Assembly (NCBI GenBank): GCA_041489155.1
Contig: JBGPQP010000004.1
Location: 13,592-77,591 of the forward strand
Length of the DNA: 64,000 bases
Origin: Candidatus Aenigmatarchaeota archaeon
Lineage (GTDB): Archaea > Aenigmatarchaeota > Aenigmatarchaeia > QMZP01 > QMZT01
Reading direction: 5' to 3'
The translations under genes were made by a program, and so were the position numbers. Positions 270 through 30,654 of the stretch are shown here, in pieces. Position 1 is the stretch's first letter. Each line of letters begins with the position of its first letter. Below the pieces are notes generated by a model. It was given only the letters and a program-made list of their open reading frames with translations, did not search any database and was not told where the DNA came from.

Positions 270-2525
270 ATGGCTGTTTGCGAGGCGACGTATGACGAGG
301 AATCGAGGCGGCTGAAAGTCGACTGCCTGGGCTGCGTGTACGGCGCGTCGGTCGAGGACTACGACAACTGCATGGGCATGGTCATAGACAAGCTGCTATC
401 GAACAAGAACGTGGACTCCATCGTCCTCGCCAAAGAGAGGGAATACGAATATTCCGGCGAGCAGGTGAAGATGCTCGTAGAGATAGCGAACGTCATCGAA
501 AGCATAATCAGGGAAAGACTGATTTCTTACTCGAATCTCAAACCCGACACCTGCGGCAAATGCTACCCGAAGTTCCCTTCGAACATGCAGAACATAGCGA
601 TTAATCTCATAAGAAGGGACCCGGTAGGCGCTTACGTAGAACTTATCCGGGAGGGAAGGGAGCTTCTCGTGAGGATGGCGAAGAAAGACGCATGCCACCG
701 ATGCTACAGGCATTACAAGGAGGACATCGTGGATGTGCTCATGAAAAAGCTCGAGCCGACTAAAATGATACAGCTGGCGAAACCGAGGCTTTCAGGCTAC
801 CACGTGGGCAACCGCGAAATCTACCGCCAGGTTTTCACCCCCAGCGTCAGGCCGAACTTCATGCTCACGCGCTACATGATCGCGCCGCCGGAGAATGGGA
901 AGTCGGTGGACCGCTATAACGTGGGGGACATACAAGTCGAGATCTACAAGGTCCCGCACGATACCAATTATTTTTATCACGCCACTCCCCCGGAGTTCAA
1001 CCTCTCGGAGGAGAAATACGCGGTCATGGACGCGGCGAGAAGGTACATGGCGTCGCACAGGCCGAAAACCGCGGAGTTCGTGAAGTCGGAGAAAGTCAGG
1101 GAGATTTTCTACAACATCGGAAAGGACATGCTCCGCGAGGTCGCCGACAAGATGGGCATCTACCTGACGTCGAATGACATCGAGCAGATGGCCGCGATAC
1201 TTACAAGATACACGGCGGGCCTTGGCGTTCTCGAGGTTCTGCTGGCGGACGAGAGGATACAGGACATATACATAAACTCGCCCATCGAGAGCAAGCCCAT
1301 CCTCATTTTTCACCAGGACTACCAGGAATGCCAGACCAACCTCATTCCCACGAGAGAGGACGCGGAATCCTGGGCTACCCGCCTGAGGATACAGTCCGGG
1401 AGGCCGCTTGACGAGGCGAATCCCGTCCTCGACACGGACATCGGCGTGCCGGGGGGCAAGGCAAGGTTCGCGGTCATAACCAAAGGCCTGTCGCCGCTGG
1501 GTTTCGGCTTCGCGATAAGAAGGCACAGGGACAAGCCCTGGACGCTGCCCCTGTTCATAAAGAACGGCATGATAAGCCCGCTGGCAGCCGGCCTGATTTC
1601 ATTCCTTGTCGACGGCTCGGTTTCGCTGCTCGTCGCTGGAGGCAGGGGTTCAGGCAAAAGCAGCATGCTCGGTGCGATGATGCTCGAGCTGCTGCCCAAG
1701 GTAAGGATAGTGACGATAGAAGACACGCTCGAGCTCCCCGTCGACCAGCTGAGGGATCTGGGTTACAACATCGAATCGCTCAAGTCGAGGTCGGTTATAA
1801 CTAAAGTGGAATCTGAAATGCCCGCTGACGAGGCGCTTAGGACTGCGCTGCGTCTCGGCGACTCGGCGCTCATAATAGGCGAAATCCGTTCGAAAGAAGC
1901 GAGCGCGTTGTACGAGGCGATGAGAATCGGAGCGCTTTCTAACGTCGTCGCCGGGACGATTCACGGCGAGTCGCCATACGGCGTATACGACAGGGTCGTG
2001 AACGACCTTGGCGTTCCCCCGACGAGCTTCAAGGCGACTGACGTGATCCTAATATGCAAATCGCTCAGGTCAGCTGATGGCCTCCGCCGCTCCAGGAGGA
2101 TGACGGAAATCACGGAAGTGAGAAAGCACTGGGATACGAACCCGCAGAAGGAAGGGGGTTTTGTCGGCCTGATGGAATACAACGGCAAGGAGGACACGCT
2201 TAAGCCGACTGATACGTTCGTCAACGGCGAATCGGAAATTCTCAACAGGATCGCTTCCTACGTCAAGGAATGGTCAGGCAACTGGGAAACGGTCTGGGAG
2301 AACATAAAGCTCCGCGCCAGGATGAGGGAAAATCTCGTGAACATGGCTGACAAGCTCAGGATGCCAGAACTCATGGAGGCGGAATGGATTACGATGTCGA
2401 ACAACGAATACCACATCATCGCCGAGAAGCTGAAGGAGGATGTCGGGTCGGTCGACGCGAAAATCGCCTACGATGAATGGGAGAAGTGGCTCAGGCTGAA
2501 AATAAAGTCAGGAAGTAAAGATTGA
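270..2525 (+). CDS. Type II/IV secretion-family ATPase (archaeal FlaI/PilB/VirB11-like) with a long N-terminal region
   Basis: 751-aa ORF with an ATG start. Walker A 'GGRGSGKSSML' is followed by 'IVTIEDTLEL', 'ALRLGDSALIIGEIR' and 'GTIHGES', the usual secretion-ATPase boxes. Confidence 0.85.
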   Translation: MAVCEATYDEESRRLKVDCLGCVYGASVEDYDNCMGMVIDKLLSNKNVDSIVLAKEREYEYSGEQVKMLVEIANVIESIIRERLISYSNLKPDTCGKCYPKFPSNMQNIAINLIRRDPVGAYVELIREGRELLVRMAKKDACHRCYRHYKEDIVDVLMKKLEPTKMIQLAKPRLSGYHVGNREIYRQVFTPSVRPNFMLTRYMIAPPENGKSVDRYNVGDIQVEIYKVPHDTNYFYHATPPEFNLSEEKYAVMDAARRYMASHRPKTAEFVKSEKVREIFYNIGKDMLREVADKMGIYLTSNDIEQMAAILTRYTAGLGVLEVLLADERIQDIYINSPIESKPILIFHQDYQECQTNLIPTREDAESWATRLRIQSGRPLDEANPVLDTDIGVPGGKARFAVITKGLSPLGFGFAIRRHRDKPWTLPLFIKNGMISPLAAGLISFLVDGSVSLLVAGGRGSGKSSMLGAMMLELLPKVRIVTIEDTLELPVDQLRDLGYNIESLKSRSVITKVESEMPADEALRTALRLGDSALIIGEIRSKEASALYEAMRIGALSNVVAGTIHGESPYGVYDRVVNDLGVPPTSFKATDVILICKSLRSADGLRRSRRMTEITEVRKHWDTNPQKEGGFVGLMEYNGKEDTLKPTDTFVNGESEILNRIASYVKEWSGNWETVWENIKLRARMRENLVNMADKLRMPELMEAEWITMSNNEYHIIAEKLKEDVGSVDAKIAYDEWEKWLRLKIKSGSKD

Positions 2526-2770
2526 TTTTGCGCGGGCTTGTCGGCATACTGAAGGGAATAAGAATGGGCAGGAAATTAAGCGTGCGCTACCTTGTTACAA
2601 CAATCGTTGCATCAGCGCTGATTGGCGCAATCGCCGGCTTGTTCGTGGAAAATGACTTGAGATTCGCGATACTTGCAGGCTATGTTGGCGGTGACTTCAT
2701 AGAAAGCTTATACAAGGTGCGGTTCCGCGAGATATACAAGCCGTCAAACAGAAAGGTGAAAATACCATAG
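2522..2770 (+). CDS. Small membrane protein, hypothetical
   Basis: 82-aa ORF with a TTG start overlapping the ATPase stop. An alternative ATG at 2561 gives MGRKLSV.... It has one clear hydrophobic helix (LVTTIVASALIGAIAGLFV). No recognisable family. Confidence 0.35.
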   Translation: MILRGLVGILKGIRMGRKLSVRYLVTTIVASALIGAIAGLFVENDLRFAILAGYVGGDFIESLYKVRFREIYKPSNRKVKIP

Positions 2771-2778
2771 GTGAAACA

Positions 2779-5700
2779 ATGAAAGGATTCATGAAAATAA
2801 ATCTGGCCGCGTTTATTGCGTTAATGATGTTATTATCAATCATACTCTTTCCTAATGCAACCATGGCAACAATTTACTGCCCGGACTGCTCTAATACGTG
2901 TTGGAACCCATACTGGTTAACCAACTGTCCTGGGGGGTCAGCTGATAACTGCGGTGACTGTGGATGCACACAAACTTGTGACCAGGGGTGTGGTGCATCG
3001 TGCGATGATAACGGCGATTGCCCGAATTATTGTGCAGACGGTGACATATTGCAGGAGAACCGTGTATGTCAGTCAGGTTGCACATGCGACAGCGGCAGCT
3101 CATTTAATTGCAATAACTATAACTTTTACCTGTGTGGCAGCGGAAATGTCAGGTATCTTCGTAATTATTATTGTTCTGGTGGGAATTGCAACTCATACAA
3201 TGATGATTGGATAGATGACTGCGACGCAGTATGCGACGGCACCTGGATGAAGAAATGCAGCGGCGGCGATTGCGTCCTTGACTATGATTGCCTCGCCACC
3301 TGCACAGGCAAGCAGCGCTACCACGGCTGCTACGGCGGCTGCAACAGCCCCTATTGTGACACCGGCTACGGGAACCCGTGCGGAGCCGCATGCGACCAGA
3401 ACGACGTGCAGGAAGGGGGCGATCCGAATTGGTGCCAGGCCTGCTCAAACGACGCGAACTGCGCGTGGAACAACATAAATAACGGCTATCAATGCAGCTC
3501 CGCGGATTCGTGCTCCGGCAATTCGGTGTGCACACACTACGATTGCAGCAGCGGTGCGTGCAGCGCCCAGGATGGCTGCACCAACTGCGACATTTATGAT
3601 GGTTGGTATGGCGGCGGAGAAAATGGTTGCGGTGTCTATGATGACCCAACATCATATTACCGCGATTATTACTGCTCTAGCGGCTCGTGTACTTATTCTA
3701 ACACGAACTCTGCTGACTGCGACATTTATGATGGTTGGTATGGCGGCGGCAACACGGCTGGCTGCGGTGATGACCCAACATCATACCACAGGGATTATTA
3801 TGTAATTGCAAATACCGACTCATGTGACTACTGCAATGCCGACTCTGCTGATTGTGACGGTTCTGATGTCTGTTCTAATGTATGTTTAGGATCTTACATA
3901 TACAGTTACTTGGATTATTATGTGACTGCAAACACAGGCTCGTGCACATATGCATGGGGTTCATATATTGAAGACTGCGCGACAAAAGCGAGCGAGTGCA
4001 CGAGTGTTTCAAATTACAGGGACTACGTGGGCTGTTCGGGCGGTGCGTGCACTTATAATGATTATGATTCCGACTCGGCACAAGGTTATTGTGATGCGTG
4101 CAAGGGCGCTGGTTACTGGTACCTTGGAGGTGAAACTTCGCCAACCACGTGCTGCGAGGATTCTGGAGAATACAAAAGAACTTTTGTAGATTACGCAGGG
4201 AATTCATATGGTGTCCAGGACTGGGGCTCCAGCCAGGCAGCATGTTGCGATGCATCAACTGACCATATAAATTACAACGGCCAGTGTGTTACATCCGGCT
4301 CAGGCGGTTATGCAGTAGCAACAGGATATTCTGTTCATGACCAATATGCTTATCCTTACTACTATTCCGGTGATCAAGGATGGCTCGACCTGGACGGTCA
4401 TTCGTCCTGGCCAGCTGCATTCGGAGCAAATGTATGCGGCGGCAGCGGCTGGATATACATGTATGGCGATTCTACCGGAGAGAAATGCTCCACCGCAGGG
4501 GGCAGCGGCTGCTGGGACGCAGGACAAAACAACTATGGCTGCTGCGGCGATGATTCAGGAGAGAATTATCTTTACAGGTTGAGTTATTCGGACCAGGTTG
4601 GAGGGCTTACAGCAACTAGTACATCCGATTACGCATGCTGTGATGCTTCAACAGATTGCGTGTATAATGGAGCGTGTTATGCTCAAAGTACTTGGTATGA
4701 TTTAGATAGTAATGGTGTATATGATTCATACTGTTATGGCGTTAATGGCTGGTTAAATGCAGATAGACATACTTCATATTGTACAGCAAATCATTGGAAT
4801 ATTGGCGGAGATGCGGATTTAGAAGGTGATTATTATCAGGTCGGCGGAGGACGAACTGATTTTTGTGATATAGGTGCAGCCGGAACTCCAAGTACACAAT
4901 GCTGCTGCGGCGACGATACTGGGGAAAATTACAGGACATGCACCGATTCTTCAGCGAACGGCGACTGCGGAGCAGATACAACAGCGTGCTGCACTGCTAC
5001 AACAAAGTGCATTGACCACAACGGCGCATGCCAGTCGACTGGTTCATGTTATACTTTTGGTTCAGGTGGGTTGAAATCATATTGTAACTCCGGAACATGG
5101 GAAGACCCTGACGAAGCGAGTGGCTATTGCACAGCATCCGGATGCGGATACACATGGATGACAAACGTGCCCACTAGCGGAACACAATGCTGTGCTGATG
5201 ATTCAACATCAGATAATTCATATTATTATTCAGCTAATCCTACGACTGCAACATCGCTTTCCTGCGAGCGCTGCAATGCGGGCAGTTATGTTTCACCTGT
5301 AACTTATTATGGGAATGGTTATTACACGGGCTCACTGACCACTTCAACAACAACTAACTGCTATTATGGTGACATTACTTGCAGTGCCGCGAACGGCGCG
5401 AACGGAACCAATGCTAACATATATGGCAACGGCTGGACGACAGGTTCTGTAACGACGTCTACTTCGCTTGTATGCTACTACGGCGACATGGGTTGCAGCG
5501 ACGGATCACAGAGCAACGGCACTTCTGGAACGTACTACGGCAACGGATATTCTAGCGGCAGTGGGACTTCAAGGACATGCCATTATGGCGATATAACCTG
5601 CAGCGATGGCTCTGCCTCAAACGGGACATCGCAGAATATTTACGGCTGGGGCTACTATGAGGGAAGCCTGACGGCATCGACGAGCGTGAGCTGCAAAAGC

Positions 5701-8700
5701 GGCGCAGCTACATGCGCTGACGGCAGCGCGGCGAATGACAGCGCGACCACTCTTTATGGTAATGGTTACATGCCGGGAAGCGGGACGACGAGGACATGCT
5801 ACTACGGCGACATCACTTGCGCTTCGGGCAGCGAGGCGGACGGGACGAGCGCGACGGTCTATGGGTGGGGCTGGTACAGCGGAAGCCTCACGACCTCAGC
5901 GACGGTGACGTGCAGGAGACCTGCAGGCACGTGCTCCGACGGCAGCTCTGCGAACGGCTCTGCCAGCACGCTCTGCGGCAACGGTTATTTTTCGAGCTCA
6001 AGCTCTTCCTGTTCTTCCGCTGACCAGAACACGGCAACAAGCGGCTATTGTTATTATGGAGACATGGCATGCAGCGATGTATCGGAGGCGAATGGCGCTG
6101 TAAGCAGCCTGCTCCGTGGCAACGGTTACACGATAGGCACTCCTGCCACAGACGTGACAGGCACATGTTATTACGGCAACATTGCCTGCGGCGACGGCAG
6201 CAGCGGCAACGGAACGAACGCGACTGTTCACGGCAATGGTTACGAAAGCGTGGGCGCATGTTACTACGGCGACTGGGCATGCGGCGACGGGACTTATGCG
6301 AATGGCAGTTCCTGCGCCCTTGCCTGCGGAGGCTCGGGCAACGCGTGCTGCACCAGCCAGGGCATATACACGGACAGCGTCTCTTGTTCTGTTTCTGGTT
6401 GCGGCCAGACCAACCACGACAGGGACAGCGCGCAGAGCTATTGCACTGCTACGGCGTCCGGCTGCACCGCATACGACTGGAGCATCGGCGGCGAGATAAA
6501 TGCGACGGTCTGCTGCGGCGACGACACGGGCGAAAACAAGCGCCTGAGATTCTGCAGCTCATGGTGCGTTTCCAACGCCAGCGACGACGCGTGCTGCGGC
6601 TCATCGGACAAATGCGTTTACAACAGCGCCTGCTACGGCGCTGGCTCATGCTACTCGGATGACGCATACTGCGATGCGGGCGCATGGCACGACTCTGACG
6701 ACGGGCAAACGTACTGTGAGGCGTGCAGTGGAAGCGGCAGATGGAACGCGGGCGGGGAGGTCTCGCCGACCTTGTGCTGCGGCGACGAGGCAGGAGAGAA
6801 TTATGATTACAGGATCGCCGACGGAGGCATGGACAACAATTTCGCCACCAACTCGAGCGATGACGCGTGCTGCAGCGCTGCGAATGACTGCGTCGCTGGC
6901 AGCGCATGCTACAGCAGCGGGAGCACGGCGAACGACATCGACAGCGACGGGGACAACGACTACTGCAACGCAGGGATGTGGTATGACTGCAGCACGGCTG
7001 CGCAGTGCCCGTCGGGCTACAGCTGCTTCGTAGGCGACTGCGTGGACGTGATAGACCTCATGTATGTCATTCCCACGCCTGCCCACGGCTCAAAAACTCC
7101 CAATAGTTCTGTCACCATAAACCTCACGGCAAACGACACGGTAAGCATGAGCATCGACACGTGCACGCTCCAGTGGAACGGCGTCAACGAGACGATGACA
7201 AAGTCAGGCAGCGGGACGTATGCTAATTGTTATGCGACTAAAGCGGTTGCCGACGGCTCGAGCTACAGCTTCAGGGCTTATGTCAACGACAGCGCGGGCA
7301 ACCTGGAAATGGAAAACGAAAGGAACTTCAGCGTGAATACGGCGCCGTCGCTTCCGGGCGTTTATCTCAACGTTAGTTTCGCCAAGAGCGGTGACCATGT
7401 TCTTGTTGCGACGACGGGAGCGAATGACAGCAACGGCGACGAGTATTATCTCAGGTGCGGCAACACGACAGGCCTCTCGAACCTGTGCAATTCTTCCCAG
7501 GGAAGCGGGCAAAGAAACTGCTCCTTCGCCAGCGGATGGGACGATAACGTCCAGCACATTGTCTACTGCAGGCTTGACGACGGCTATGAATATTCAACCG
7601 AAGCGCAGGCCAACCTGACAGCGGACAACCTGCCTCCCACGCCCAATCCTGCGCAGATAGAAGCCGCAGCAATGGCTTCTACCTCCGCGACCGTCACGGC
7701 AGTAGCCGCGAGCGACGCGTCTGCTGGGCTGAATGCGCTTGCCTACCGTTTCAACGACTCCGGCACATGGAGCGAATGGCAGGCCGGCAGAACTTACATA
7801 AACTCTTCGCTGCAGCCCAACACTCTTTATTGTTTCAACGCGCAGTACAGGGATACGCTTAACAATACGGGTTCAGCCAGCAGCCAGGTGTGCAATTACA
7901 CCCTTGCAGACCAGCCGTCCGTCGCATCGGTCAGCTGCTCTTACAACGGCACGCATGCATGCCAGGCCAACTTCAGCATGGGTTCGAATCCATACGGAGT
8001 GGAATATTACATAGACGAGACTACCGGCAGCGCAGGCGGCAGCGACAAGAACTGGACCGCGTGGGCCGGCGAAACTTCTTACAACGACGTCGTGTCCCTG
8101 CCGCACACGTCATATTGTTACAGGATAGTTGCGAAGAACCAGAACGGGACATCGACTCCGTTTTCGTCTCAGGTATGCGACACGTCCTATAACAACGTGC
8201 CTTCTGTCACCAGGCCGGTTGTATATGACAGCACCATGGCAGAGAAAAGTCAAATAAAGGCCGGCAGGGACATGTACGTCAAGGTTAACGTCAGCGACGG
8301 CGACGGAGCGGATGACATAAGCTCGGTCAGAATAAAGATAACGGACAACAACGGCCAGACCAGGGTGAACAGCGCTGATATGGCAAGCATAGCATCAATA
8401 ACAAACGGCTACGTTTATCAGTACAGCTATCGCACGCCTTCCGACGGCGAGGGCACATGGACCATCGAAATCACCTGCGTCGACGACGGCAGCGCGCAGG
8501 TAACGAACTCGACCACATTTGCTATTCTCTCGCTAAGGCTGGGCATAAGGCTTGTGCTCAACGAAACCGCAGCAAAAATTTATGTCCCCGGAGAGGGGGA
8601 AAAGGCTTTTGCTGATTTAACGAATGCTTATTATCCGAGTCCTGAACATTACTACATCGCTTCTTACAAAAATGCGTCGCTTTACGGCCTTGTTTTCCAG

Positions 8701-9051
8701 GACCGCGACGCTTTAGGCTTGCTAATTAACAAGACAGCTGACACGTTCTCGGTGGGGCTCGACCTGAAATATCCGAACTCCGTCGTGTTCCTCGTCCATT
8801 CGAAAGGCGACTGGAGGACTCTCAACAGCAGGATCGGCCTTATAGAGAACGGGGCCTTCGCTGATTATTCAGAACCCACCTTCGCTTTCGGCCTGGGTGG
8901 CAAGCAAAAGATGAAAATACTGCTGCAGTACGAGAACGTGGACATTCTCGGCGGAAGGAGGGATGTCGGGAGGGGCGCGACTTCGCTTTCCATAAAGCAT
9001 GAGGGCCTTTTCGGGCAGAACATCGGCCTCAACATAACCAAGCCGCCGTAG
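2779..9051 (+). CDS. Giant (2,090 aa) secreted, extremely Cys-rich repeat protein with C-terminal FN3/Ig-like domains
   Basis: The ATG is preceded by 'ggtga'. N-terminal hydrophobic signal/anchor MKGFMKINLAAFIALMMLLSIILF. Hundreds of Cys residues, six CCGDxxGEN...ACCDxxxxC modules, about nine YYGDxxC ~35-aa repeats, two FN3-like segments (aa ~1615-1800) and many N-x-S/T sequons. No C-terminal TM helix. Confidence 0.85.
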   Translation: MKGFMKINLAAFIALMMLLSIILFPNATMATIYCPDCSNTCWNPYWLTNCPGGSADNCGDCGCTQTCDQGCGASCDDNGDCPNYCADGDILQENRVCQSGCTCDSGSSFNCNNYNFYLCGSGNVRYLRNYYCSGGNCNSYNDDWIDDCDAVCDGTWMKKCSGGDCVLDYDCLATCTGKQRYHGCYGGCNSPYCDTGYGNPCGAACDQNDVQEGGDPNWCQACSNDANCAWNNINNGYQCSSADSCSGNSVCTHYDCSSGACSAQDGCTNCDIYDGWYGGGENGCGVYDDPTSYYRDYYCSSGSCTYSNTNSADCDIYDGWYGGGNTAGCGDDPTSYHRDYYVIANTDSCDYCNADSADCDGSDVCSNVCLGSYIYSYLDYYVTANTGSCTYAWGSYIEDCATKASECTSVSNYRDYVGCSGGACTYNDYDSDSAQGYCDACKGAGYWYLGGETSPTTCCEDSGEYKRTFVDYAGNSYGVQDWGSSQAACCDASTDHINYNGQCVTSGSGGYAVATGYSVHDQYAYPYYYSGDQGWLDLDGHSSWPAAFGANVCGGSGWIYMYGDSTGEKCSTAGGSGCWDAGQNNYGCCGDDSGENYLYRLSYSDQVGGLTATSTSDYACCDASTDCVYNGACYAQSTWYDLDSNGVYDSYCYGVNGWLNADRHTSYCTANHWNIGGDADLEGDYYQVGGGRTDFCDIGAAGTPSTQCCCGDDTGENYRTCTDSSANGDCGADTTACCTATTKCIDHNGACQSTGSCYTFGSGGLKSYCNSGTWEDPDEASGYCTASGCGYTWMTNVPTSGTQCCADDSTSDNSYYYSANPTTATSLSCERCNAGSYVSPVTYYGNGYYTGSLTTSTTTNCYYGDITCSAANGANGTNANIYGNGWTTGSVTTSTSLVCYYGDMGCSDGSQSNGTSGTYYGNGYSSGSGTSRTCHYGDITCSDGSASNGTSQNIYGWGYYEGSLTASTSVSCKSGAATCADGSAANDSATTLYGNGYMPGSGTTRTCYYGDITCASGSEADGTSATVYGWGWYSGSLTTSATVTCRRPAGTCSDGSSANGSASTLCGNGYFSSSSSSCSSADQNTATSGYCYYGDMACSDVSEANGAVSSLLRGNGYTIGTPATDVTGTCYYGNIACGDGSSGNGTNATVHGNGYESVGACYYGDWACGDGTYANGSSCALACGGSGNACCTSQGIYTDSVSCSVSGCGQTNHDRDSAQSYCTATASGCTAYDWSIGGEINATVCCGDDTGENKRLRFCSSWCVSNASDDACCGSSDKCVYNSACYGAGSCYSDDAYCDAGAWHDSDDGQTYCEACSGSGRWNAGGEVSPTLCCGDEAGENYDYRIADGGMDNNFATNSSDDACCSAANDCVAGSACYSSGSTANDIDSDGDNDYCNAGMWYDCSTAAQCPSGYSCFVGDCVDVIDLMYVIPTPAHGSKTPNSSVTINLTANDTVSMSIDTCTLQWNGVNETMTKSGSGTYANCYATKAVADGSSYSFRAYVNDSAGNLEMENERNFSVNTAPSLPGVYLNVSFAKSGDHVLVATTGANDSNGDEYYLRCGNTTGLSNLCNSSQGSGQRNCSFASGWDDNVQHIVYCRLDDGYEYSTEAQANLTADNLPPTPNPAQIEAAAMASTSATVTAVAASDASAGLNALAYRFNDSGTWSEWQAGRTYINSSLQPNTLYCFNAQYRDTLNNTGSASSQVCNYTLADQPSVASVSCSYNGTHACQANFSMGSNPYGVEYYIDETTGSAGGSDKNWTAWAGETSYNDVVSLPHTSYCYRIVAKNQNGTSTPFSSQVCDTSYNNVPSVTRPVVYDSTMAEKSQIKAGRDMYVKVNVSDGDGADDISSVRIKITDNNGQTRVNSADMASIASITNGYVYQYSYRTPSDGEGTWTIEITCVDDGSAQVTNSTTFAILSLRLGIRLVLNETAAKIYVPGEGEKAFADLTNAYYPSPEHYYIASYKNASLYGLVFQDRDALGLLINKTADTFSVGLDLKYPNSVVFLVHSKGDWRTLNSRIGLIENGAFADYSEPTFAFGLGGKQKMKILLQYENVDILGGRRDVGRGATSLSIKHEGLFGQNIGLNITKPP

Positions 9052-9090
9052 GCTCCGGAAAATATAAGCGGCCGGGAGCAATTAATAAAC

Positions 9091-11196
9091 ATGGCCAGTC
9101 TTTTCGGCAAAAAGAAGAAAGAGCCGCCAGAAACAACCACGACCGAAGGCTATATGCAGCGCTACCAGCAGCTTTCCTTCCCCGACGAGAGCCAGCCGGT
9201 TGTGACCTCGCGCGAGTTCAGGCTTTTCAAGAAAAAAGAAGACCAGCCGCTGATATGGTTCGAAAGGCTCGCCCGCATCGCCGGCAAAATAATTTCTGCA
9301 AACCCGCCGGACGAGAACACGAAAAAGGAGCTTGAAACCTCGATTGCCTTCACGAGCATCCGCGTCACGCCGAAAGACGTGATGGCGCTCGTTTACCTCA
9401 CCATGATTTCTTTCGTGATAGCAGGCATATTTGTCGTGGTCCTGGGAATCGTCCCTCTTATGGGCGTGCTGTTCATTTCAATGGTCGGGGTCGGCCTCGG
9501 CTATTACTTCCTGAAATACCCGCTCAACCTCATGAAGGCTTACAGGATCGAGGCGTCGTCGCAGGTCGTGCTGGCCGTGCTGTACATGGTCGTCTCGATG
9601 CGCGTCACCCCCAACCTGGAGCAGGCGCTGAGGTTCTCCGCTGCGAACGTATCGGGCCCGCTCGCATGGGACCTTAGAAAGCTGCTGTGGGACATAGAGA
9701 TGGGGGGCTATTACTCGGCATCCCAAGCTCTAACCGACTACATAGCGAAATGGAAGGCAGAGAACGAGGAGTTCGCTGAGGCCCTGAGGCTCGTGCGCGA
9801 CTCTCGCACGCATACGCCCGAAAAGGCGGAAATCATCCTTAACGAGGCGCTGGACGTCATACTCAACGGCACGAAAACGCGCATGAAGCACTACGCGCAG
9901 GACCTCACGCTTCCGGTAAGCATTATACACATGATGGGCATCGTTCTTCCGATCCTCGGCAGCATAATGGCTCCGATGGCGGCGGTCTTCCTTTCCGACA
10001 TCGCCAGGCCGGAATATTTCTTCATAGGCTACGACGTCGTCCTGCCGCTTTTCATAGTATGGTTCATAAACAGCGTGCTCAAGAAAAGGCCTACGACCTT
10101 CTCCCAAGTGGACACCTCGCTGCATCCCGAGCTGCCGCCGAAGGGGAGCTTTTTCATCAACATGGGGAAAAAGAAAGTCGCGATGCCCGTCCTGCCGTTT
10201 TCGCTCATCACAGCGTTGGTTTTCATCGTCCCGGCGGTCCTGTTTTTCATGAGCGACCCCAGAGTATTTTTCTCAGGCGAAGGCGTCCACGACATGTTCT
10301 CGATGATAATGTCGCTGATGGTTATACTGGGCATCGCCCTGGGACTGGCGACGCATTTCATCCTTTCGAACTACCAGAGGATGAAGATACAGACTGACGT
10401 GCTGAAGACGGAGAGTGAGTTCGAACTCGCGCTCTTCCAGCTCGGCAACAGGATTTCCGGCGGGACCCCGATAGAACTCGCCCTTGAGAAATGCGTTGAC
10501 GACGTTAAGGACCTCAGCATCGCCGGCCTGTTCACGATAACCCTGCGCAACATAAAGAACCTGGGCATGACCTTCAAGGAGGCGCTGCTCAACGAGAAGT
10601 GGGGGGCCATAAGGTTCTACCCGAGCAGCCTGATAAGGAACATAATGTACATGATCGTCGACATCGCAAGGAAAGGCGTCAAATACGCGGCGGAGGGCAT
10701 GATGACGGTTTCGAAATACCTGCGCAACATACGCGAGACGCAGGAGTACATACGCGACCTCCTGCAGGAATCGGTCTCGTCGATGAAGTTCCAGGCATAC
10801 CTATTGACTCCGATGGTCACGGGCCTGATAGTCTCCATGGCCCAGGTGATAATCAAGGTCCTTTCCATCCTCGGCAAGAGGCTCCAGGAGCTGAGCGCCG
10901 GCAGCAACCTGCCGATAAACATAAGCAGCGGCCTGTTCACCGGAGGCGGCGCGGGAACAAGCTCTGTCTCGCCTGAGATGTTCCAGATAATAATAGGCAT
11001 ATACCTCATCGAGGTGATAATCATCCTCGCCATGTTCATGACCAAGATTTCGCAGGGAGAGGACAAGGTTTACATGTGGTATTCAGCGGGCAAGATGCTG
11101 ATTGTCGCCGTGACCATGTACTTCCTAGTCGCCATCGGCGCATCGATGATGTTCGGCGGCCTGATAGAGCAGGCGGTAAGCAGCATCGCGGGATAG
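9091..11196 (+). CDS. Polytopic membrane protein, FlaJ/PilC/TadC-like type IV filament platform (two T2SS-F-like halves)
   Basis: 701 aa. Two soluble helical segments (aa ~170-260 and ~455-560) are each followed by clusters of TM helices, which matches the duplicated GspF/FlaJ architecture. It sits in the same orientation as the ATPase at 270. Confidence 0.7.
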   Translation: MASLFGKKKKEPPETTTTEGYMQRYQQLSFPDESQPVVTSREFRLFKKKEDQPLIWFERLARIAGKIISANPPDENTKKELETSIAFTSIRVTPKDVMALVYLTMISFVIAGIFVVVLGIVPLMGVLFISMVGVGLGYYFLKYPLNLMKAYRIEASSQVVLAVLYMVVSMRVTPNLEQALRFSAANVSGPLAWDLRKLLWDIEMGGYYSASQALTDYIAKWKAENEEFAEALRLVRDSRTHTPEKAEIILNEALDVILNGTKTRMKHYAQDLTLPVSIIHMMGIVLPILGSIMAPMAAVFLSDIARPEYFFIGYDVVLPLFIVWFINSVLKKRPTTFSQVDTSLHPELPPKGSFFINMGKKKVAMPVLPFSLITALVFIVPAVLFFMSDPRVFFSGEGVHDMFSMIMSLMVILGIALGLATHFILSNYQRMKIQTDVLKTESEFELALFQLGNRISGGTPIELALEKCVDDVKDLSIAGLFTITLRNIKNLGMTFKEALLNEKWGAIRFYPSSLIRNIMYMIVDIARKGVKYAAEGMMTVSKYLRNIRETQEYIRDLLQESVSSMKFQAYLLTPMVTGLIVSMAQVIIKVLSILGKRLQELSAGSNLPINISSGLFTGGGAGTSSVSPEMFQIIIGIYLIEVIIILAMFMTKISQGEDKVYMWYSAGKMLIVAVTMYFLVAIGASMMFGGLIEQAVSSIAG

Positions 11197-11252
11197 CATC
11201 ATCTTTTTCTATAGCCTACGCTCAAAAGCTGGTGAAATCAAAAATTAAAAAG

Positions 11253-11326
11253 GGCCACGGCCGAGATTTGAACTCGGGCTAAGGGATCCACAGTCCCTTG
11301 TGCTACCAGGCTACACCACCGCGGCC
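11253..11326 (-). tRNA. tRNA-His (GTG), no intron, with genomically encoded G-1
   Basis: Reverse complement: G-GCCGCGG TG GTGTAGCCTGGTAGCACA AGGGA CTGTGGA TCCCT TAGC CCGAG TTCAAAT CTCGG CCGTGGC C. The cloverleaf folds and the anticodon loop is CUGUGGA. The extra 5' G pairs with C73, as expected for His. Oligo-T follows. Confidence 0.9.
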
Positions 11327-11381: not shown

Positions 11382-13274
11382 CTATTTTATTTTTACGTGT
11401 TCCCTTACCTTGTCACCGGGCTTGCCGGATTTTATTTCATAAATAGGTTCCCTCTTGTCCTCGGGAACATGTATGCCTATTTCCTCTGCTGCGCCCAGTA
11501 TGGCCTCGCTCCTAACTCCGCGTATTTCAGATTCTTTTGCGGTCATCAATTTGCCCGAACCTTTCCAGTCAAAATACTTTGAGCCCGGAAGGATAACGGG
11601 CACGAGCATGCCTTCCCTTGCATTAGAGCACGTGGTAAGCGAAACCACCTTTTTGCTTCCTATGCTGACTTCGCAAATCTTAAGATTGTCGGCATTGGGA
11701 TGTTTCTTTACCTCGTCTATTCTTCCTACCACGAGGCTGTCCTGAGCAAGCACATTTTCAGCGGTTTTGCCGTCAGTCTCCTCGGCGCCTTCGGTTTCCG
11801 GCTTCATGAACGGGAAGAAGATGACGTCACGTATGCTGGGCGAGTCCGTGAGCAGCATTATCAGGCGGTCGACCCCGAGGCCTATCCCTGACGTAGGAGG
11901 CATGCCGTATTCCAGCGCGCGGACGAAATCGGCATCCATCCTCTGCGCCTCTTCATCTCCACGCTTGAGGTCCCGCTCAGCCTTCTCCCAGTAATGCCTT
12001 ATCTGCTCCGGGTCATTCGCTTCGGAGTACGAGTTGATGATTTCCCATGCGTTGACGAAGCTCTCGAAGCGCTCGGCAATCCTATCGTCGTCCTGCCTCC
12101 TTTTCGAAAGGCCTGAAACGTCCGACGGGAAATCGTAAATGTGAACAGGCTGGATGAGATGCTGCTCGACCTTGCTCTCGAAGACGTGCGCGACTATCTC
12201 GCCCCACGACATGCCCTTTTCGACTTCGGCGCCGAGCTCCTTCTCGGCGGCAAACGCCTTCTCCGCGTCGAGCTTGCCGAAGTCCTTTCCGGTGTATTGC
12301 TTCACCGCGTCCAGCATGCTCATCCTCTTCCATGGCGTTTTGAATTCCAGGACCTGGCCCTGGTAGACTATCTTCGTCTTGTCGCAGACCTGCTTGACTA
12401 TATGTTCTATCATTTTCTCCGTCAGGTCCATGCTGTCATTGTAATCCGCGTAGGCGCACATGGTTTCCATCATGAGGAATTCGGGATTATGCGTCTTGTC
12501 TATGCCCTCGTTCCTGAAGTCCTGCGAGAATTCGAATATCTTTTCATACCCTCCTACGATGAGCCGCTTGAGATAGAGCTCGTTCGAGATGCGCATGTAA
12601 ATCTTCATGTCCAGCGCGTTGAGCTTCGACTCGAAGGGCCTCGCGGACGCTCCTCCGTAAATGGGCTGTAGTATCGGCGTTTCGACTTCCTTGAAGCCGT
12701 GCGTCTTTAGGAACTCGCGTGTCGCTTCTATCGCCTTTGCTCTTTTATCGAAAACGTCCTTGACCTCGGGGCTGAGTATGAGGTCCACGTATCTCTGGCG
12801 GTAGCGCAGCTCCTTGTCCTTGAGGCCGAACCAGTCCTTCGGCAGCGGGCGCAGCGCTTTGGTGAGCAGCTCAAAATTTCCTGTATGAATACTGAGTTCG
12901 CCGCGCTTCGTGCGGAGCACGTGGCCCTTCGCGCCTATGATGTCGCCCGCGTTAAGCATGGCATCGAAGAAATCGAATTTCTCCTTCCCGATGCCCGCCT
13001 CGTCTACAAGCAGCTGGATTTTGCCAGAAGCATCGTTGAGGTCGGCGAATATCAGCCTGCCGTGCTTCCTTATCGACCTTATCCTTCCCGCGACTGAAAC
13101 TATGAGCTTCTTCATCTCCTTGCCGTTCCCGAGCTTCTCCGCCTTCTTGGCGATCTCGCTGACGAGATGCGTCTTGCCGTAGCGCCTCTTGTAGGGTTCT
13201 ATCTTCCTCTTTCTCAGCTCGGAGAGCTTTATGCGCCTTTCCTCGATTTCGGAGAGCGATTCCTTTTCGGTCAT
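11382..13274 (-). CDS. lysS: Class II lysyl-tRNA synthetase fused to a C-terminal Trbp111/EMAP-II-like tRNA-binding domain
   Basis: 630 aa. N-terminal OB anticodon-binding region; class II motifs '[14 protein letters not shown]', '[16 protein letters not shown]'. The C-terminal ~110 aa '[23 protein letters not shown]...[11 protein letters not shown]' matches the CsaA/Trbp111 OB fold. Confidence 0.9.
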
Positions 13275-13930: not shown

Positions 13931-16900
13931 ATGTTCAGAAGGGACGTTATCTTGTTCGGTGCCTTAGCCTTATTTTTGACGGCGCTTGTTTTTGTTCTGC
14001 CGGGCTCTGCGTTGTACAGCACCTACGGGAATTTCTCGGTCACGCCTGACGAGGTTTCCTTCAACTGGACGAATGTGAGCATAATTGTAACGTCCAATAG
14101 TAGCAGCCTTATAGTCGTGGTGAACAACACGGCAACAGAAATACAACCCAGGTATTTCACTTCAGGCGAATATCAGGTGTCCAGTCCCTGGCCCACGGAT
14201 CCTCAATGGAGGAACTGCTTCAGCGTGATAGGCGGGCCAAGCGGCATGAAGTTCATGGCGGAGAACGCTACCGGGACTTATGCCGTCCTTACGTACAGCG
14301 GCGAGCTGAACAACACAAACAGCACGACCTTTAACCTCACGGCCTACCAGTACTGCCCGCCCGGCTTGTACTCGGGCTATCTCTATGTTTTCAAGAACGG
14401 CGCTGAAGCCGACAAGGCCAAAATCGCCGCTAACGTCAGCATACCCATCAATCCCCAAAACACGTTCAACTTCACCGGCCGCTATTCTTCCTTCAAAGGT
14501 TCGTTCGTGGAAAGCGCTCAGAATTATCATTCATTTTATTTAAACAAAAGCCATATCGTGAACTCGACATGCGGGACGCTAAAACTGACCGGCTTCACAG
14601 GTGATATTGACATATTCCTTTTCGCTAATGCGAGCCTTCTTTATAAATCAATAAAAAGTTCTGGAGAAGACGAGGAAATAGAATGCGTTCCTTGGCCTGG
14701 AGAAGCCGAAAAGGAGATGATGGAAATAAGAGTTTACGGCAATGTCACGTCCGCTTATTCAGGTTATGTTTACTTCACCCCCCTTGGAGCGGCAAACACC
14801 AGCAACCCGAACCAGAAATTCAACGCCTCGAGTCCCATAAATTTGGGCGTTCTTGACCCCAACAGCACCTCGCAAAATGTTCCAGTAAACATATCCAACA
14901 TTGATGACCAGGCAGCCAACAGTGTAAAAGAAAGCGCGGAAGTTTACCGCGTTGATGCCTGGACCAACAAAAACCAATCCGGAACATACCGTTTCCTTGT
15001 CCCCAACTTTGCTGAGAAAGTGAAGGTCAAGATAGAGTGGACGAGCAACACGACTTATAACCTGTTCCTGAGTGACGTGAACGCCTATCTTTTCGGCAAT
15101 TCGAGCCAGAAATACAAAAACGCCAACAAGACCGGAAGCGTGAAAGAAGAGTTTGTAATCACTACTTCACCCCTAAATGAATCAAACGACGGTTACTGGA
15201 ACATAACCGTATTGAACACAAGCGCGATATACGGCAGCTATAACGTTACAGCCTATGTGTGGATGCCGGAGGATGCATGGTTCGAGAGCAGCTACACGCT
15301 AGGAGGCTTCAGCTTTGCTCCGATGGGAAGCGAGAACGACTCCCTTGGCTTTTCCTTCAATGTAACCGTCCCTGAACTTTACCTCACAAACGGAACATAC
15401 GAGGGTTTCCTGCGCTACAACAACACCGAAGGATGGAAACTGCAGGTTCCGTTCAATTTCAAGGTCAAAGCCGGAATGCTGCTCATGGACAACGAAAACA
15501 TGAGCTCCAGCACCCATGTGGTAAGAGACAACATCGGCTTTGACAGGCTTGGCGCGGGAGCGATCCCCCTTAACATAACTTACAATAACACGGGAGACTA
15601 TCCGATATACTACACGGAAACCAATAGCAGCAACAAGCTCTATCTGACCTCGAACACTTCGAATTATATAGATTTTGTTGTGGACGAAATGCCTGAGGAC
15701 GGCTCGAAGATAAACAACAACACCGGGGGAACAATGGACATCCGCCTGCTTTTAAACACGTCCCTGACAAACGACGTGGCGGGAACCTATGAAGGCAACA
15801 TGACCTTCAACACCACTAATACGACCGTCACTTCATCTTCCTATCCCTTCAAGATCTATACCCTTGTACTGAGGGTCGTCCTTACTAACGACCTTAGCGT
15901 CAACATAACGGATATCACTCCGTCGACCATAAACACCGAAAACGCGACTAACATAACAACGAAAGTAAGCGTGAAGCTGGAGAACGGGACGGTCATATCA
16001 TACTCGAATCCCGCACTTATGAACATAAGCGACTTCACCGGCATGATTCTTACAGAGGGCAACTACAGCGCAACGGGCAAGATTTACGACCTCACCCAGA
16101 ACAGGTCGCAGGCCGATACCTTACTCTGCCCCTCGGGAGGCGAATGCCGCATAAACTGGACTATTCCGGCCGGAGCCATAGGTGGGCAGTACTTCACAAA
16201 GGTTACCGCGCAGGTAAACACCAGCCAGATACCGAACGGCAATGGGAAAAAGATACTGACAGGGCAATACGAAACGCCCAACACGTCCGTCGTGGTAAAC
16301 GACACAGGCCTCTGGCTGCACATTGTTGACGACGAATGGGAGGATAACCTTTACGAATCAACCTCCTCCATTTACAGCGTGCGGGTCAAGAATTTCGGCC
16401 CGGCTACAGCGAACAAAGCACAGATTAAATTCTACAAGAACACGGACTGCCCCGTTTCAATAAGCAGGGATAGCGTTAACTGCTCAGAGTGCGGCGGCAC
16501 CTACACAAGCACCCAAGTGCCTTCCGACAGCTGGAACCTCACCACCCTTCCTGGCTACAAGAGCGACTGCCTGTGCAAGCTTTCATGGGAGCTGACTGCG
16601 ATTTCTGTTGATGAAACCGAGGAATGCGACGTGGACGTACGAGTGGTGACCAGCCATAAAAAATTCGAAGAGGTGAGCGCGACAATATATATCCGCACCA
16701 ACGCCACCAGCAACCAGGGGGCCCAGCAGACAACAACATGCACGACCAACGCGACCTGCGGCGACACGCAGTACTGCAAGAGCGGGAGCTGCATATCAGT
16801 TTCCTGCCCGTCCGGGCAATATGCGAAGAACCACGCGTGCAACAAGCACGGACCCCAGATAAACATAACCGCCTACGCCACCGAAAAAATATACGTGCTG

Positions 16901-17818
16901 CAGGGCGGCTCGAACTCGACTAAGGTGACGGCCAAGAACACGGGTGGATACTCCTACACAGCGAAACTCGAAGCGAACTCGACGGTTGCGGACTTCAATG
17001 CGAGCGTAACGCCGGCAAGCTATACGCTTTCGCCCGGCAACTCAGGCATTTTCACGGTTGACTTCAGCGTGTCTGCGAGCGCTGAAATAGGCTACTACAC
17101 GATGACGGTCAAGGCGTATGCCAGCGACAACGCAAGCGTTTACGCAACGAAAGATATAACCCTTGCGATAGAGCCGCTCGAGCAGACGAAGGCACTGGTC
17201 AACCAAACGTATGATAACATCAAGACTTTGTTCGCTTCTGTAGCGACCCTGTTCAACCAGCTTGCACCCAAGACAGACGACGCGAACTACACCCTAGCCA
17301 ACAGGACGTATTACAGGCTGCTCAACATGCTACAGGACATAGAGAACAACATAAAGCTGGGCAATTACCTGGAAGCCAGGAGCCTCATGGATGAGGCGAA
17401 TTCGTCTATAACGACTTTCAGGCAGCAGGTGGAGCAGCTTTCCGCGGCAGGCGGGCTGCTGTCTTTCCTTGGTGACAGCAACATCCTTACTCTGGTTGCG
17501 ATTCTTGTGGTGATAATAGTGATAGGAGGCTTCCTCGCGTACCTTCTGCTGCCGCCGAAGAAGGGCTACCATCCGATTACAGGATACCTGCCGAAAGAAA
17601 AGATCTCAGTCACGCACAAGCTTGCGTATTTCTTCACCCACATAAAGCTCAGAAAACCGAAGATGCCGGGCAGCCAGAGAACGCTGCAGACATACGAGAG
17701 GTCGGCTCCGGCCGCGCCTGCCCCGGTCCAGCCTGACAGGCGATACGCCGAAGGCTACCACAGGCTTGATGAATTCCCGCTGAGCTACGATAAGAGGAAG
17801 TTAAAGGAAAAGAAATAG
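13931..17818 (+). CDS. Large (1,295 aa) sequon-rich surface protein with a C-terminal TM anchor (S-layer/adhesin-like)
   Basis: N-terminal signal FGALALFLTALVFVLPGSA and very many N-x-S/T sites. A Cys-rich knot (TTTCTTNATCGDTQYCKSGSCISVSCPSGQYAKNHAC) is followed by a helical stalk. C-terminal TM ILTLVAILVVIIVIGGFLAYLLL is followed by a basic tail. Confidence 0.8.
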   Translation: MFRRDVILFGALALFLTALVFVLPGSALYSTYGNFSVTPDEVSFNWTNVSIIVTSNSSSLIVVVNNTATEIQPRYFTSGEYQVSSPWPTDPQWRNCFSVIGGPSGMKFMAENATGTYAVLTYSGELNNTNSTTFNLTAYQYCPPGLYSGYLYVFKNGAEADKAKIAANVSIPINPQNTFNFTGRYSSFKGSFVESAQNYHSFYLNKSHIVNSTCGTLKLTGFTGDIDIFLFANASLLYKSIKSSGEDEEIECVPWPGEAEKEMMEIRVYGNVTSAYSGYVYFTPLGAANTSNPNQKFNASSPINLGVLDPNSTSQNVPVNISNIDDQAANSVKESAEVYRVDAWTNKNQSGTYRFLVPNFAEKVKVKIEWTSNTTYNLFLSDVNAYLFGNSSQKYKNANKTGSVKEEFVITTSPLNESNDGYWNITVLNTSAIYGSYNVTAYVWMPEDAWFESSYTLGGFSFAPMGSENDSLGFSFNVTVPELYLTNGTYEGFLRYNNTEGWKLQVPFNFKVKAGMLLMDNENMSSSTHVVRDNIGFDRLGAGAIPLNITYNNTGDYPIYYTETNSSNKLYLTSNTSNYIDFVVDEMPEDGSKINNNTGGTMDIRLLLNTSLTNDVAGTYEGNMTFNTTNTTVTSSSYPFKIYTLVLRVVLTNDLSVNITDITPSTINTENATNITTKVSVKLENGTVISYSNPALMNISDFTGMILTEGNYSATGKIYDLTQNRSQADTLLCPSGGECRINWTIPAGAIGGQYFTKVTAQVNTSQIPNGNGKKILTGQYETPNTSVVVNDTGLWLHIVDDEWEDNLYESTSSIYSVRVKNFGPATANKAQIKFYKNTDCPVSISRDSVNCSECGGTYTSTQVPSDSWNLTTLPGYKSDCLCKLSWELTAISVDETEECDVDVRVVTSHKKFEEVSATIYIRTNATSNQGAQQTTTCTTNATCGDTQYCKSGSCISVSCPSGQYAKNHACNKHGPQINITAYATEKIYVLQGGSNSTKVTAKNTGGYSYTAKLEANSTVADFNASVTPASYTLSPGNSGIFTVDFSVSASAEIGYYTMTVKAYASDNASVYATKDITLAIEPLEQTKALVNQTYDNIKTLFASVATLFNQLAPKTDDANYTLANRTYYRLLNMLQDIENNIKLGNYLEARSLMDEANSSITTFRQQVEQLSAAGGLLSFLGDSNILTLVAILVVIIVIGGFLAYLLLPPKKGYHPITGYLPKEKISVTHKLAYFFTHIKLRKPKMPGSQRTLQTYERSAPAAPAPVQPDRRYAEGYHRLDEFPLSYDKRKLKEKK

Positions 17819-28390: not shown

Positions 28391-28405
28391 AAGGTGTAAT
28401 TGAAA

Positions 28406-29377: not shown

Positions 29378-29434
29378 TAGAAAAAACTTGTTCGCAAGCC
29401 CACAAATTTAAACTTATTAGCCCAATAAATTAAC

Positions 29435-30088: not shown

Positions 30089-30090
30089 TG

Positions 30091-30567: not shown

Positions 30568-30654
30568 TGATGAACGCGTCTTCTGCCCTTTTTAAAAAGC
30601 GCTATCTGCCGAGGAAGATATACTTTTATAAAGGTTCTATTACAATAAGTTAAT

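Follow-up and report, generated by a model that had tools for sequence, protein, structure and literature searches.

Why does a gene for a giant secreted protein sit between the pair of genes that form the core of a type IV pilus-like machine? The question is raised by positions 270-11196 of a 64,000-nucleotide (nt) stretch of DNA from a Candidatus Aenigmatarchaeota archaeon, an organism with a small genome (contig JBGPQP010000004.1; the whole stretch is called the window), where four open reading frames (ORFs), all on the + strand, were found at the coordinates listed below. They comprise genes for an assembly ATPase, a secreted protein of 2,090 amino acids (aa), here called the giant, and a membrane platform protein, together with a doubtful ORF of 82 aa. 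A preliminary description of the locus had read the giant as standing there instead of pilins, and the machine as one dedicated to its export. The comparisons reported here indicate that the giant is an accessory add-on carried by some relatives and not a replacement for pilins. The sole part common to all proteins encoded at this slot is a C-terminal domain (CTD) of approximately 175 aa, and the reading we favor, at a probability of roughly 45%, is that the giant is a Sec-exported, hypervariable adhesin whose CTD docks to a structure of the pilus system, following a logic like that of PilY1.

The features of the locus are listed below; the promoter- and terminator-like elements were assigned by reading the sequence.

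227-242, + strand: AT-rich TATA-like element, approximately 30-40 nt 5′ of the ATPase start; putative operon promoter
270-2525, + strand: type IV-filament assembly ATPase of the FlaI/CpaF/GspE superfamily, 751 aa (from Pfam, PDB and motifs)
2508-5151, + strand: hypervariable replaced segment, comprising the ATPase gene end, the 82-aa ORF and the giant gene up to about residue 791 (blastn against the relative L092)
2522-2770, + strand: 82-aa ORF with a TTG start, an internal ATG at 2564 and one hydrophobic segment; doubtful gene
2779-9051, + strand: giant secreted protein, 2,090 aa (ORF)
2779-2868, + strand: signal peptide of the giant, Sec type, residues 1-30, with the predicted cleavage site behind TMA (from its n, h and c regions)
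2869-7458, + strand: Cys-rich passenger of the giant, residues 31-1560 (motif positions and module alignment)
7096-8490, + strand: Ig/FN3-like β-domain region of the giant, residues ~1440-1904 (weak Pfam matches and sequons)
8491-9048, + strand: CTD of the giant, residues ~1905-2090 (family profile)
9059-9068, + strand: TATA-like AAAATATAAG, approximately 28 nt 5′ of the platform ATG; possible internal promoter
9091-11196, + strand: platform protein of the TadC/FlaJ/PilC (T2SSF) class, 701 aa (orthologue Pfam matches, structural model with Foldseek, and context)
11204-11208, + strand: T5 tract, 8 nt past the stop codon of the platform gene; likely archaeal terminator closing the operon

The gene slot between ATPase and platform

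For comparison, 80 loci surrounding homologues of the platform gene, each GTDB species being represented by a single genome, were annotated by BLAST and with hidden Markov models (HMMs) built from the window proteins; loci of relatives are given by L numbers. In 13 GTDB species, and likewise in the window and in L092, the gene immediately 5′ of the platform gene encodes a CTD protein, the distance between the two being -4 to 67 nt. The preliminary description had proposed a search of relatives for the synteny seen in the window, and the full order of ATPase, CTD gene and platform indeed recurs (window, L092, L002/L005, L080 and L045). The slot was retained across platform identities of 57-95%. 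In a neighbor-joining tree of the platform proteins, built like that of the CTDs without support values, three clades were resolved, and the CTD-occupied loci all fell in one of them (clade I, that of the window). Because basal branches are included among these loci, the occupied slot is probably ancestral in clade I.

The smallest protein encoded at the slot has 201 aa (L045) and the largest more than 3,313 aa (L033), and the N-terminal portions of the slot proteins are unrelated to one another: Cys-rich modules in the window, L002 and L080, a β-helix in L009 and a LamG domain in L012. The CTD alone is constant. All slot proteins end in it, with E-values of 1e-26 to 1e-60 against the family HMM and, for the window protein, 3.8e-60 on residues 1907-2088. 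The L045 protein consists of a signal and the CTD only, and its gene overlaps the ATPase stop codon by 4 nt, which suggests translational coupling.

Two loci (L066:9253-9888 and L069:9219-9878) carry an unrelated protein of 211-219 aa in the slot, with an N-terminal transmembrane (TM) segment, a coiled coil and a Cys-rich C-terminus.

The CTD family

The CTD family was defined by running HMMER exhaustively against 1.84 billion representatives. Its members have an N-terminal Sec signal and the motifs VYIPGxGE, HYY[IL]ASY, F[LT]VF[ST]KGDW and PSFxFGLG, and the window giant is one of them. The search returned 166 clusters with proteins of 82-3,741 aa, in which the match was always at the extreme C-terminus, and the named members that were checked are all from Aenigmatarchaeota. 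About half of the CTD proteins among the matches listed are 190-200 aa long and consist of a Sec signal and the CTD with nothing else. The abundance of these stand-alone representatives argues for an independent role of the CTD, beyond that of a sorting tag.

No Pfam, NCBIfam or PDB sequence match was obtained for the CTD, and no T9SS CTD model in NCBIfam or Pfam matched it. The Pfam family of the PilY1/PilC tip adhesins (PF05567) matched neither the giant nor its CTD. When a set of 5.8 billion proteins was searched through a word index, the last 216 aa of the giant found nothing, and a 42-sequence CTD profile found just 8 matches, on short contigs. An AlphaFold2 (AF2) model computed from the 42-sequence alignment gave a confident β-sandwich with a mean predicted local distance difference test score (pLDDT) of 85.5. 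Compared with PDB folds in Foldseek, this model matched nothing significantly, the best entries being the supersandwiches of the GH31 N-domain and YidC P1 (E ~0.015). The most conserved CTD motif, PSF[AS][FY]GLG, sits in the sole low-confidence loop of the model, a placement as would be expected for a partner-binding element.

The members checked have Sec-type signals and no C-terminal TM segment, so that another retention mechanism is needed. An archaeosortase substrate of the PGF-CTERM type was considered and rejected, there being neither a C-terminal TM segment nor a PGF-type motif. The family is apparently undescribed; nothing was found in the literature on it, on its modular passengers or on the slot between ATPase and platform.

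CTD genes away from the pilus operon

Contexts outside the operon were collected from 12 single look-ups, many of them on short contigs. The L018 genome has an operon with an empty slot on a 1.1-Mb contig, and a 1,090-aa protein with a β-helix and a CTD is encoded approximately 570 kb away on the same contig, in a surface-protein island with MoxR and vWA genes. This gene is the positional orthologue of a passenger-less 198-aa CTD gene in L094. On three unrelated contigs (L084:3419-5434, L087:1-1739 and L095:1-1627), an archaeosortase-family gene (TIGR04178, 48.6 bits; active-site Cys changed to Ser in two of the three) is followed by the gene for a protein of approximately 225 aa and then by a stand-alone CTD gene, the reading frames of the last two overlapping. 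The ~225-aa protein has an N-terminal hydrophobic helix and a weak match to DUF7287 (E 0.004-0.006, below the gathering score); proteins with this domain may be pilin-like, but only the helix and the gene overlap are observed here and counted as evidence. Further CTD members were found in housekeeping contexts or beside other giants. In the CTD tree, which is weak, most CTDs linked to type IV pilus (T4P) genes cluster together; the CTDs of the cassettes are nested next to this main cluster, and that of L045 lies nearby.

In L098 (10001-31226), two giant genes follow each other directly: the first product has 3,741 aa and ends in a CTD, and the second exceeds 3,270 aa. Each starts with the basic motif GPYFYxTVRTxEGxxKTxYLG ahead of any signal-like segment.

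Architecture and variability of the giant

The preliminary description had called the giant secreted, Cys-rich, repeat-built and adhesin-like, and each of these attributes was borne out. The protein contains 155 Cys (7.4%), almost all within residues 1-1560. Its signal is of the Sec type (MKGFMK, an h region, then PNATMA/T), and no further TM segment is predicted; the C-terminus (...NIGLNITKPP) is likewise free of hydrophobic segments. The passenger is made up of approximately six diverged modules of ~100 aa with the motif CCGDDxGEN...ACC and, at residues ~840-1170, of approximately eight 38-aa repeats (YGNGY..C.YGDxxC). It matched no Pfam family or PDB sequence. The gene has no tandem repeats at the DNA level, and neither a paralogue nor silent cassettes were found within the window. 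In the Ig/FN3-like region, weak Pfam matches to Big_13 and fn3-type domains coincide with a cluster of NxS/T N-glycosylation sequons, and a stretch of ~105 aa is 44% identical to a secreted protein of Aenigmatarchaeota (L096:6159-7727). These data support a giant, secreted, Cys-rich, modular, adhesin-like protein as the product of the middle gene.

The start MKG/F superficially resembles a class III signal, yet clear Sec signals of the AxA type, and not class III signals, were read in the stand-alone family members as well as in the orthologues from L002, L080 and L092; the possibility that the giant is a huge pilin was therefore rejected.

The closest relative, L092/L093, is 92-94% identical to the window flanks at the nucleotide level (blastn), and the L092 proteins are nearly identical to those of the window (ATPase 98.3%, platform 95.0%, aspartyl-tRNA synthetase 94%, PLD-like protein 96%). 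Within this background, window nucleotides 2508-5151 (2.6 kb) align to nothing in L092, which has 0.8 kb there instead. The L092 giant is 1,548 aa long. In the numbering of the window protein, the two are 90.8% identical over residues 784-2090 but only 36% over residues 4-186, and the L092 protein lacks residues ~187-783 (~600 aa). A second protein encoded downstream has diverged in the same comparison.

13931-17818, + strand: S-layer-like protein, 1,295 aa (signal peptide, many NxS/T sequons, C-terminal TM anchor and cytoplasmic tail)

This protein is the syntenic neighbor of the operon throughout the clade. It is 54% identical to its L092 orthologue, versus 94-98% for the neighbors, and nucleotides 14098-16722 could not be aligned. 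Such divergence of the giant and the S-layer-like protein is the pattern that would be expected of exposed interaction surfaces.

Layout of the operon

The ATPase, giant and platform genes had been described as co-oriented and tightly spaced, and their coordinates and + strand were confirmed. The further statement that only the 82-aa ORF and the giant gene lie between the outer two held for the giant and not for the small ORF. The 82-aa ORF had no tblastn match in 98 related loci and no Pfam or NCBIfam match, and it lies inside the 2508-5151 segment that is replaced in the closest relative; for these reasons it is doubtful as a gene. It was also rejected as a pilin or conserved component, having no counterpart in the closest relative or in any of the 98 loci.

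The giant stop codon and the platform ATG are separated by 39 nt, with AAAATATAAG inside the spacer. A GGTGA sequence stands 5 nt 5′ of the giant ATG, and no T-run comparable to the T5 tract behind the platform gene was read after the giant stop codon. We infer that co-transcription of the ATPase, giant and platform genes of the window is plausible.

The ATPase and the platform protein

The product of 270-2525 had been read as a type IV-filament ATPase, and this identification stands. The protein matched Pfam T2SSE (PF00437) at 63.2 bits (E 2.3e-17, cutoff 24.9) over residues 411-596, and its best relatives in the PDB are the Archaeoglobus GspE-like protein 2oap (4e-30), CpaF (1e-21) and FlaI (2e-18). 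Walker A (GGRGSGKS, 457-464), the Asp box (IEDT, 483-486), Walker B (LIIGEIR, 534-540) and the His box (GTIH, 562-565) are intact, align with those of 2oap and are kept in 22 orthologues. An N-terminal extension of ~220 aa and a C-terminal one of ~130 aa, both outside the T2SSE core, are conserved in the same 22 orthologues. Judged by these matches, the protein is a type IV-filament assembly ATPase of a divergent, phylum-specific subfamily. The best NCBIfam model was FlaI (NF058587, an equivalog), with 122.9 bits against a cutoff of 550, and the ATPase is thus not an archaellum motor. Family and class III scans of the window found no FlaH, FlaF/FlaG or archaellin genes in the operon or its flanks, and an archaellum identity was rejected on the FlaI score and the lack of these accessory genes.

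The platform protein of the window had no Pfam or NCBIfam match of its own, T2SSF (PF00482) being absent even at E≤10, and a 17-member platform profile found no match among PDB sequences. Orthologues that are 54-70% identical to it pass the PF00482 gathering score in two stretches (~152-297 and ~437-570), with 28.1 bits for P0027, 27.6 for P0060 and 27.8 for P0114 against a cutoff of 25.2; the T2SSF model was matched by 6 of the 17 family members. An AF2 model of the window protein (pLDDT 72) gave local Foldseek matches to the cytoplasmic domains of EpsF (2vmb, 3c1q) and OutF (5nbg), with probabilities of 0.85-0.99, target TM-scores of 0.61-0.76 and a root-mean-square deviation of ~3 Å, the global E-values not being significant. 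Approximately nine TM segments are predicted. An alignment of the N-terminal with the C-terminal half by hhalign, which would have indicated an internal duplication, was not significant. The platform gene adjoins its cognate ATPase gene, or is one gene apart from it, in at least 30 loci. On the strength of the orthologue T2SSF matches, the local fold matches and the cognate ATPase neighbor, the product of 9091-11196 is assigned as a divergent platform protein of the TadC/FlaJ/PilC class, in a phylum-specific subfamily. The T2SS-F homology that had been proposed for it was thus recovered through its orthologues and its modeled fold. Essentially all of the 359 platform homologues are labeled Aenigmatarchaeota, a result that also places the source organism in this DPANN phylum.

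In the comparison with 80 Aenigmatarchaeota species, the ATPase-platform pair emerged as a phylum-wide core. Clade I shares downstream synteny consisting of aspartyl-tRNA synthetase, a PLD-like protein and a surface protein of ~1,300 aa. In clade II, the pair is followed by a gene for a protein of 836-1,153 aa with a class III-like N-terminus and a hydrophobic helix, for example MGKKG/ISSEFF. Clade III holds platform paralogues without an adjacent ATPase gene, beside which a membrane protein gene identified by Peptidase_A24 was found in 21 loci. The A24 homologues next to the paralogues and the class III-like proteins of the sister clade place the platform family within ordinary pilin biology, and by its sequence the machinery looks like an ordinary pilin-assembling system. 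The proposal that the giant occupies the place of pilins finds no support in view of these two observations, together with the occurrence of the ATPase-platform pair, adjacent and without a giant, in eight relatives.

The clade II proteins behind the platform (e.g. L053:7484-10612, L055:12274-15735 and L048:12143-14722) have a hydrophobic, Gly-rich C-terminus and may be giant pilin-like proteins. The A24-like neighbors in clade III carry a WGDGDAW motif (L059:2495-3223, L067:8575-9315, L001:9404-9940 and 18 further loci).

A scan of all window ORFs for class III signals returned one good pilin candidate, the same gene, 14 kb from the operon, that the preliminary description had named as the nearest.

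25693-26097, - strand: candidate pilin with a class III signal, MGKKKG/QLFLVAIVFLVGMIF; possible substrate of the machine

The candidate had no Pfam or NCBIfam match, and no homologue of the A24 prepilin peptidase was found within the 64-kb window. The candidate gene abuts ftsZ (26231-27433, - strand) and is next to a LAGLIDADG-type ORF (24569-25483) in a stretch of low GC content (0.415).

How the giant may be displayed

In the favored reading, the genes for a hexameric FlaI/CpaF-type ATPase and a TadC/FlaJ-type platform would form the core operon of a type IV pilus-like machine found throughout Aenigmatarchaeota, and this lineage would carry an accessory surface-protein gene between them. 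Proteins of the accessory family would start with a Sec signal and end in the β-sandwich CTD, with a passenger of anything from 0 to more than 3,500 aa in between. The giant would be exported via Sec and not by the pilus machine, would fold extracellularly with many disulfides, and would then be held at the surface by its CTD, docked to the pilus, a minor pilin or the platform. Its fast-changing Cys-rich passenger would thereby be displayed as an adhesin for contact with a host or substrate. The pilus itself would be built of class III-signal pilins encoded elsewhere, such as the candidate at 25693-26097, with a prepilin peptidase encoded outside the window. Docking is favored because the slot is long-term, tightly spaced and apparently ancestral, because the passenger-less form overlaps the ATPase stop codon, and because stand-alone CTD genes are paired with genes for proteins with a hydrophobic N-terminal helix.

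Several observations weigh against this reading. The ATPase and platform genes are directly adjacent, with no gene between them, in eight close relatives that share the downstream synteny (L004, L007, L008, L010, L011, L013, L015 and L018), which on the platform tree implies at least three independent losses of the CTD gene. In none of the other contexts with usable flanks (L096, L097, L098, L084 and L086) is a CTD gene adjacent to an ATPase or platform gene. The CTDs of L024/L033 and L045 fall outside the main T4P-linked clade of the weak CTD tree. The TATA-like element ahead of the platform gene could uncouple transcription. The CTD fold was not significantly similar to PilY1, pilins or FlaF/FlaG, and a FlaF/FlaG- or PilY1-like fold is unsupported, as no such entry was among the best 50 Foldseek matches listed. 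Finally, the presence of one C-terminal domain on a wide variety of passengers would also be in keeping with a general anchor to the cell wall or S-layer.

That last possibility is the alternative that survives best, although we consider it somewhat doubtful. The CTD would here be a phylum-specific domain for envelope or S-layer anchoring or assembly, comparable to SLH or PGF-CTERM, and the giant an ordinary Sec-exported adhesin whose place in the operon reflects co-regulation at most and that is connected to the pilus machine neither physically nor mechanistically. Such an anchor would agree with the CTD proteins in at least three other conserved neighborhoods without ATPase or platform genes (the archaeosortase-like cassette, a secreted/TM cassette near MoxR-vWA and housekeeping contexts), with the repeated loss of the CTD gene from operons whose ATPase and platform genes stayed intact, and with the CTD protein encoded ~570 kb from an empty operon. 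The great diversity of the passengers and the constancy of an S-layer-like protein as operon neighbor point the same way. Less easily reconciled with it are the very stable, tight slot between or beside two genes that otherwise abut, kept across the full range of platform identities and overlapping the ATPase stop codon in its passenger-less form, the overlap of the stand-alone CTD gene with the gene for the ~225-aa hydrophobic-helix protein, and the apparent confinement of the CTD and platform families to the same phylum.

A bolder form of the docking idea, which we hold to be unlikely, would make the CTD the recognition and docking element of a modular adhesin-display system. Through it, the pilus-like machine would capture proteins already exported via Sec and present them on the pilus or at its base, perhaps forcing them across the S-layer. 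If this were true, the locus would be a functional archaeal analogue of PilY1 tip adhesins or of cargo handling by type II secretion systems (T2SS), and passenger swapping at the slot would re-tune host or substrate specificity.

Docking of a Sec-exported adhesin must also be set against the export machine of the preliminary description, in which the ATPase and platform would be a dedicated T2SS-like export or display apparatus for the giant, with the CTD as recognition signal and pilins without a role or forming a pseudopilus only. The combination of Sec signal, passenger and C-terminal β-sandwich does resemble substrates of T2SS and of type IX secretion systems (T9SS), the giant is encoded in the operon, and no pilin gene lies within 14 kb. 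However, the same ATPase-platform pair occurs without a giant in the eight close relatives and in the two other clades of the phylum, and CTD proteins occur in contexts without pilus genes, one of them at a distance of ~570 kb from an empty operon. Passenger-less CTD proteins, the commonest form, would make no sense for a pure secretion signal, and archaea have no outer membrane to cross. A prepilin peptidase stands beside platform paralogues, class III-like N-termini occur in the sister clade, and in archaeal T4P systems the pilin genes commonly lie apart from the ATPase/TadC pair (PMC4858521). A dedicated exporter is thus very unlikely.

That the slot is a permissive landing site for envelope-protein genes with no functional relation to the machine is equally improbable: the unrelated TM/coiled-coil/Cys-rich ORF in the same slot of L066 and L069 and the wholesale replacement of the 5′ part of the giant gene and adjoining intergenic DNA between close relatives would fit it, but the CTD gene is kept at the exact slot, with short gaps, in at least 13 species, and the other occupants, too, belong to the envelope, which points to selection for co-expression and not to neutrality.

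Other features of the window

A tRNA-His gene (GTG; 11252-11325, - strand) lies directly 3′ of the platform gene. It is followed by the gene for aspartyl-tRNA synthetase (11382-13274, - strand; 630 aa), which has an extra C-terminal tRNA_bind domain (PF01588) shared by the closest relative only, the enzyme being 497-530 aa long without this domain in most relatives. The 287-aa GGDEF-domain protein encoded at 18957-19820 (- strand; Pfam 4.8e-27) has a degenerate motif, TKADEF for GGDEF, and an orthologue in L092. Five co-oriented ORFs at 27896-31194 (+ strand; 164, 325, 217, 159 and 179 aa) had no family matches, and several of them share the hydrophobic N-terminal motif LPFFLVLAIVYG. A second surface-protein cluster was found at 45575-54210 (- strand), with a 1,724-aa protein combining an N-terminal HTH_11 domain and β-helix/NosD repeats after which come three secreted proteins (203, 190 and 690 aa), the 690-aa one with a CARDB domain; the GC content dips to 0.377 at 50-52 kb. 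Defense-system models (PADLOC) gave no match.

Significance

All DPANN archaea cultivated to date need physical contact with a host cell (PMC11291902). The molecules of this contact are mostly unknown, and the present locus offers a concrete, testable candidate: a phylum-wide pilus motor, in one clade of which the operon carries a giant whose outer part is swapped between near-identical genomes while a small CTD stays constant. The literature searched contained no Aenigmatarchaeota cultures or structures. The CTD, which is found across the phylum, provides a handle for finding a variable surface repertoire, and a defined domain for binding and structural work. Docking to the pilus system would mean that archaeal pili are equipped with adhesins in a manner that is new, whereas binding to the S-layer would make the CTD a new type of surface-anchoring domain in archaea. 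Either outcome would be useful, and neither would overturn current views of type IV filaments.

Comparison with known systems

Archaeal T4P loci have been catalogued as an ATPase/TadC core with pilins encoded elsewhere and with large signal-peptide adhesins or S-layer-like proteins that have conserved cysteines (Makarova, Koonin & Albers 2016, PMC4858521), T4P islands with unrecognizable secreted components have been described for DPANN (Makarova et al. 2019, PMC6393860), and homologues of FlaI, FlaJ and FlaG have been reported in most metagenome-assembled genomes of Aenigmarchaeota (PMC8407114). The statement in the preliminary description that no described system has this composition was therefore too strong, as large Sec-signal adhesin or S-layer-like proteins are known from archaeal T4P loci (PMC4858521). 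As in those loci, an ATPase of the FlaI/VirB11 superfamily here adjoins a platform of the TadC/FlaJ type, pilins often being encoded elsewhere there, and large proteins with a signal peptide, Cys-rich components and S-layer-like proteins with a C-terminal TM segment stand in or beside the locus, the components evolving fast. What sets the present locus apart is that the accessory gene lies between the ATPase and platform genes, that the accessory family is defined by a CTD without a Pfam or NCBIfam model and has passengers of 0 to more than 3,500 aa at one and the same operon position, and that the ATPase (751 aa, with extra N- and C-terminal domains) and the platform are divergent and phylum-specific.

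The archaellum is similar in that FlaI is the best NCBIfam model for the ATPase and the platform has a polytopic layout like that of FlaJ, but the FlaI score is 122.9 against 550 and no FlaH, FlaF/G or archaellin genes lie in or near the operon.

A constant C-terminal module on diverse Sec-exported passengers is also the hallmark of the T9SS CTD of Bacteroidota, of SLH proteins and of PGF-CTERM/archaeosortase substrates, and some stand-alone CTD genes adjoin an archaeosortase-family gene. Unlike the T9SS and PGF-CTERM tags, the present CTD has no model match, no C-terminal TM helix and no PGF-type motif, and its passenger-less forms are common.

A parallel to the docking reading is provided by bacterial PilY1 and Neisseria PilC, in logic only: these adhesins have a signal of the Sec and not the prepilin type, their N-terminal adhesive part is large and variable, their conserved C-terminal domain is believed to dock them to the pilus, and their genes are placed among pilus genes. 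There is no sequence or fold relationship; the CTD is modeled as a β-sandwich of ~175 aa and the C-terminal domain of PilY1 is a β-propeller. Unlike the PilY1/PilC loci, the operon has no adjacent minor-pilin genes, and many CTD members lie off pilus loci, many of them without a passenger.

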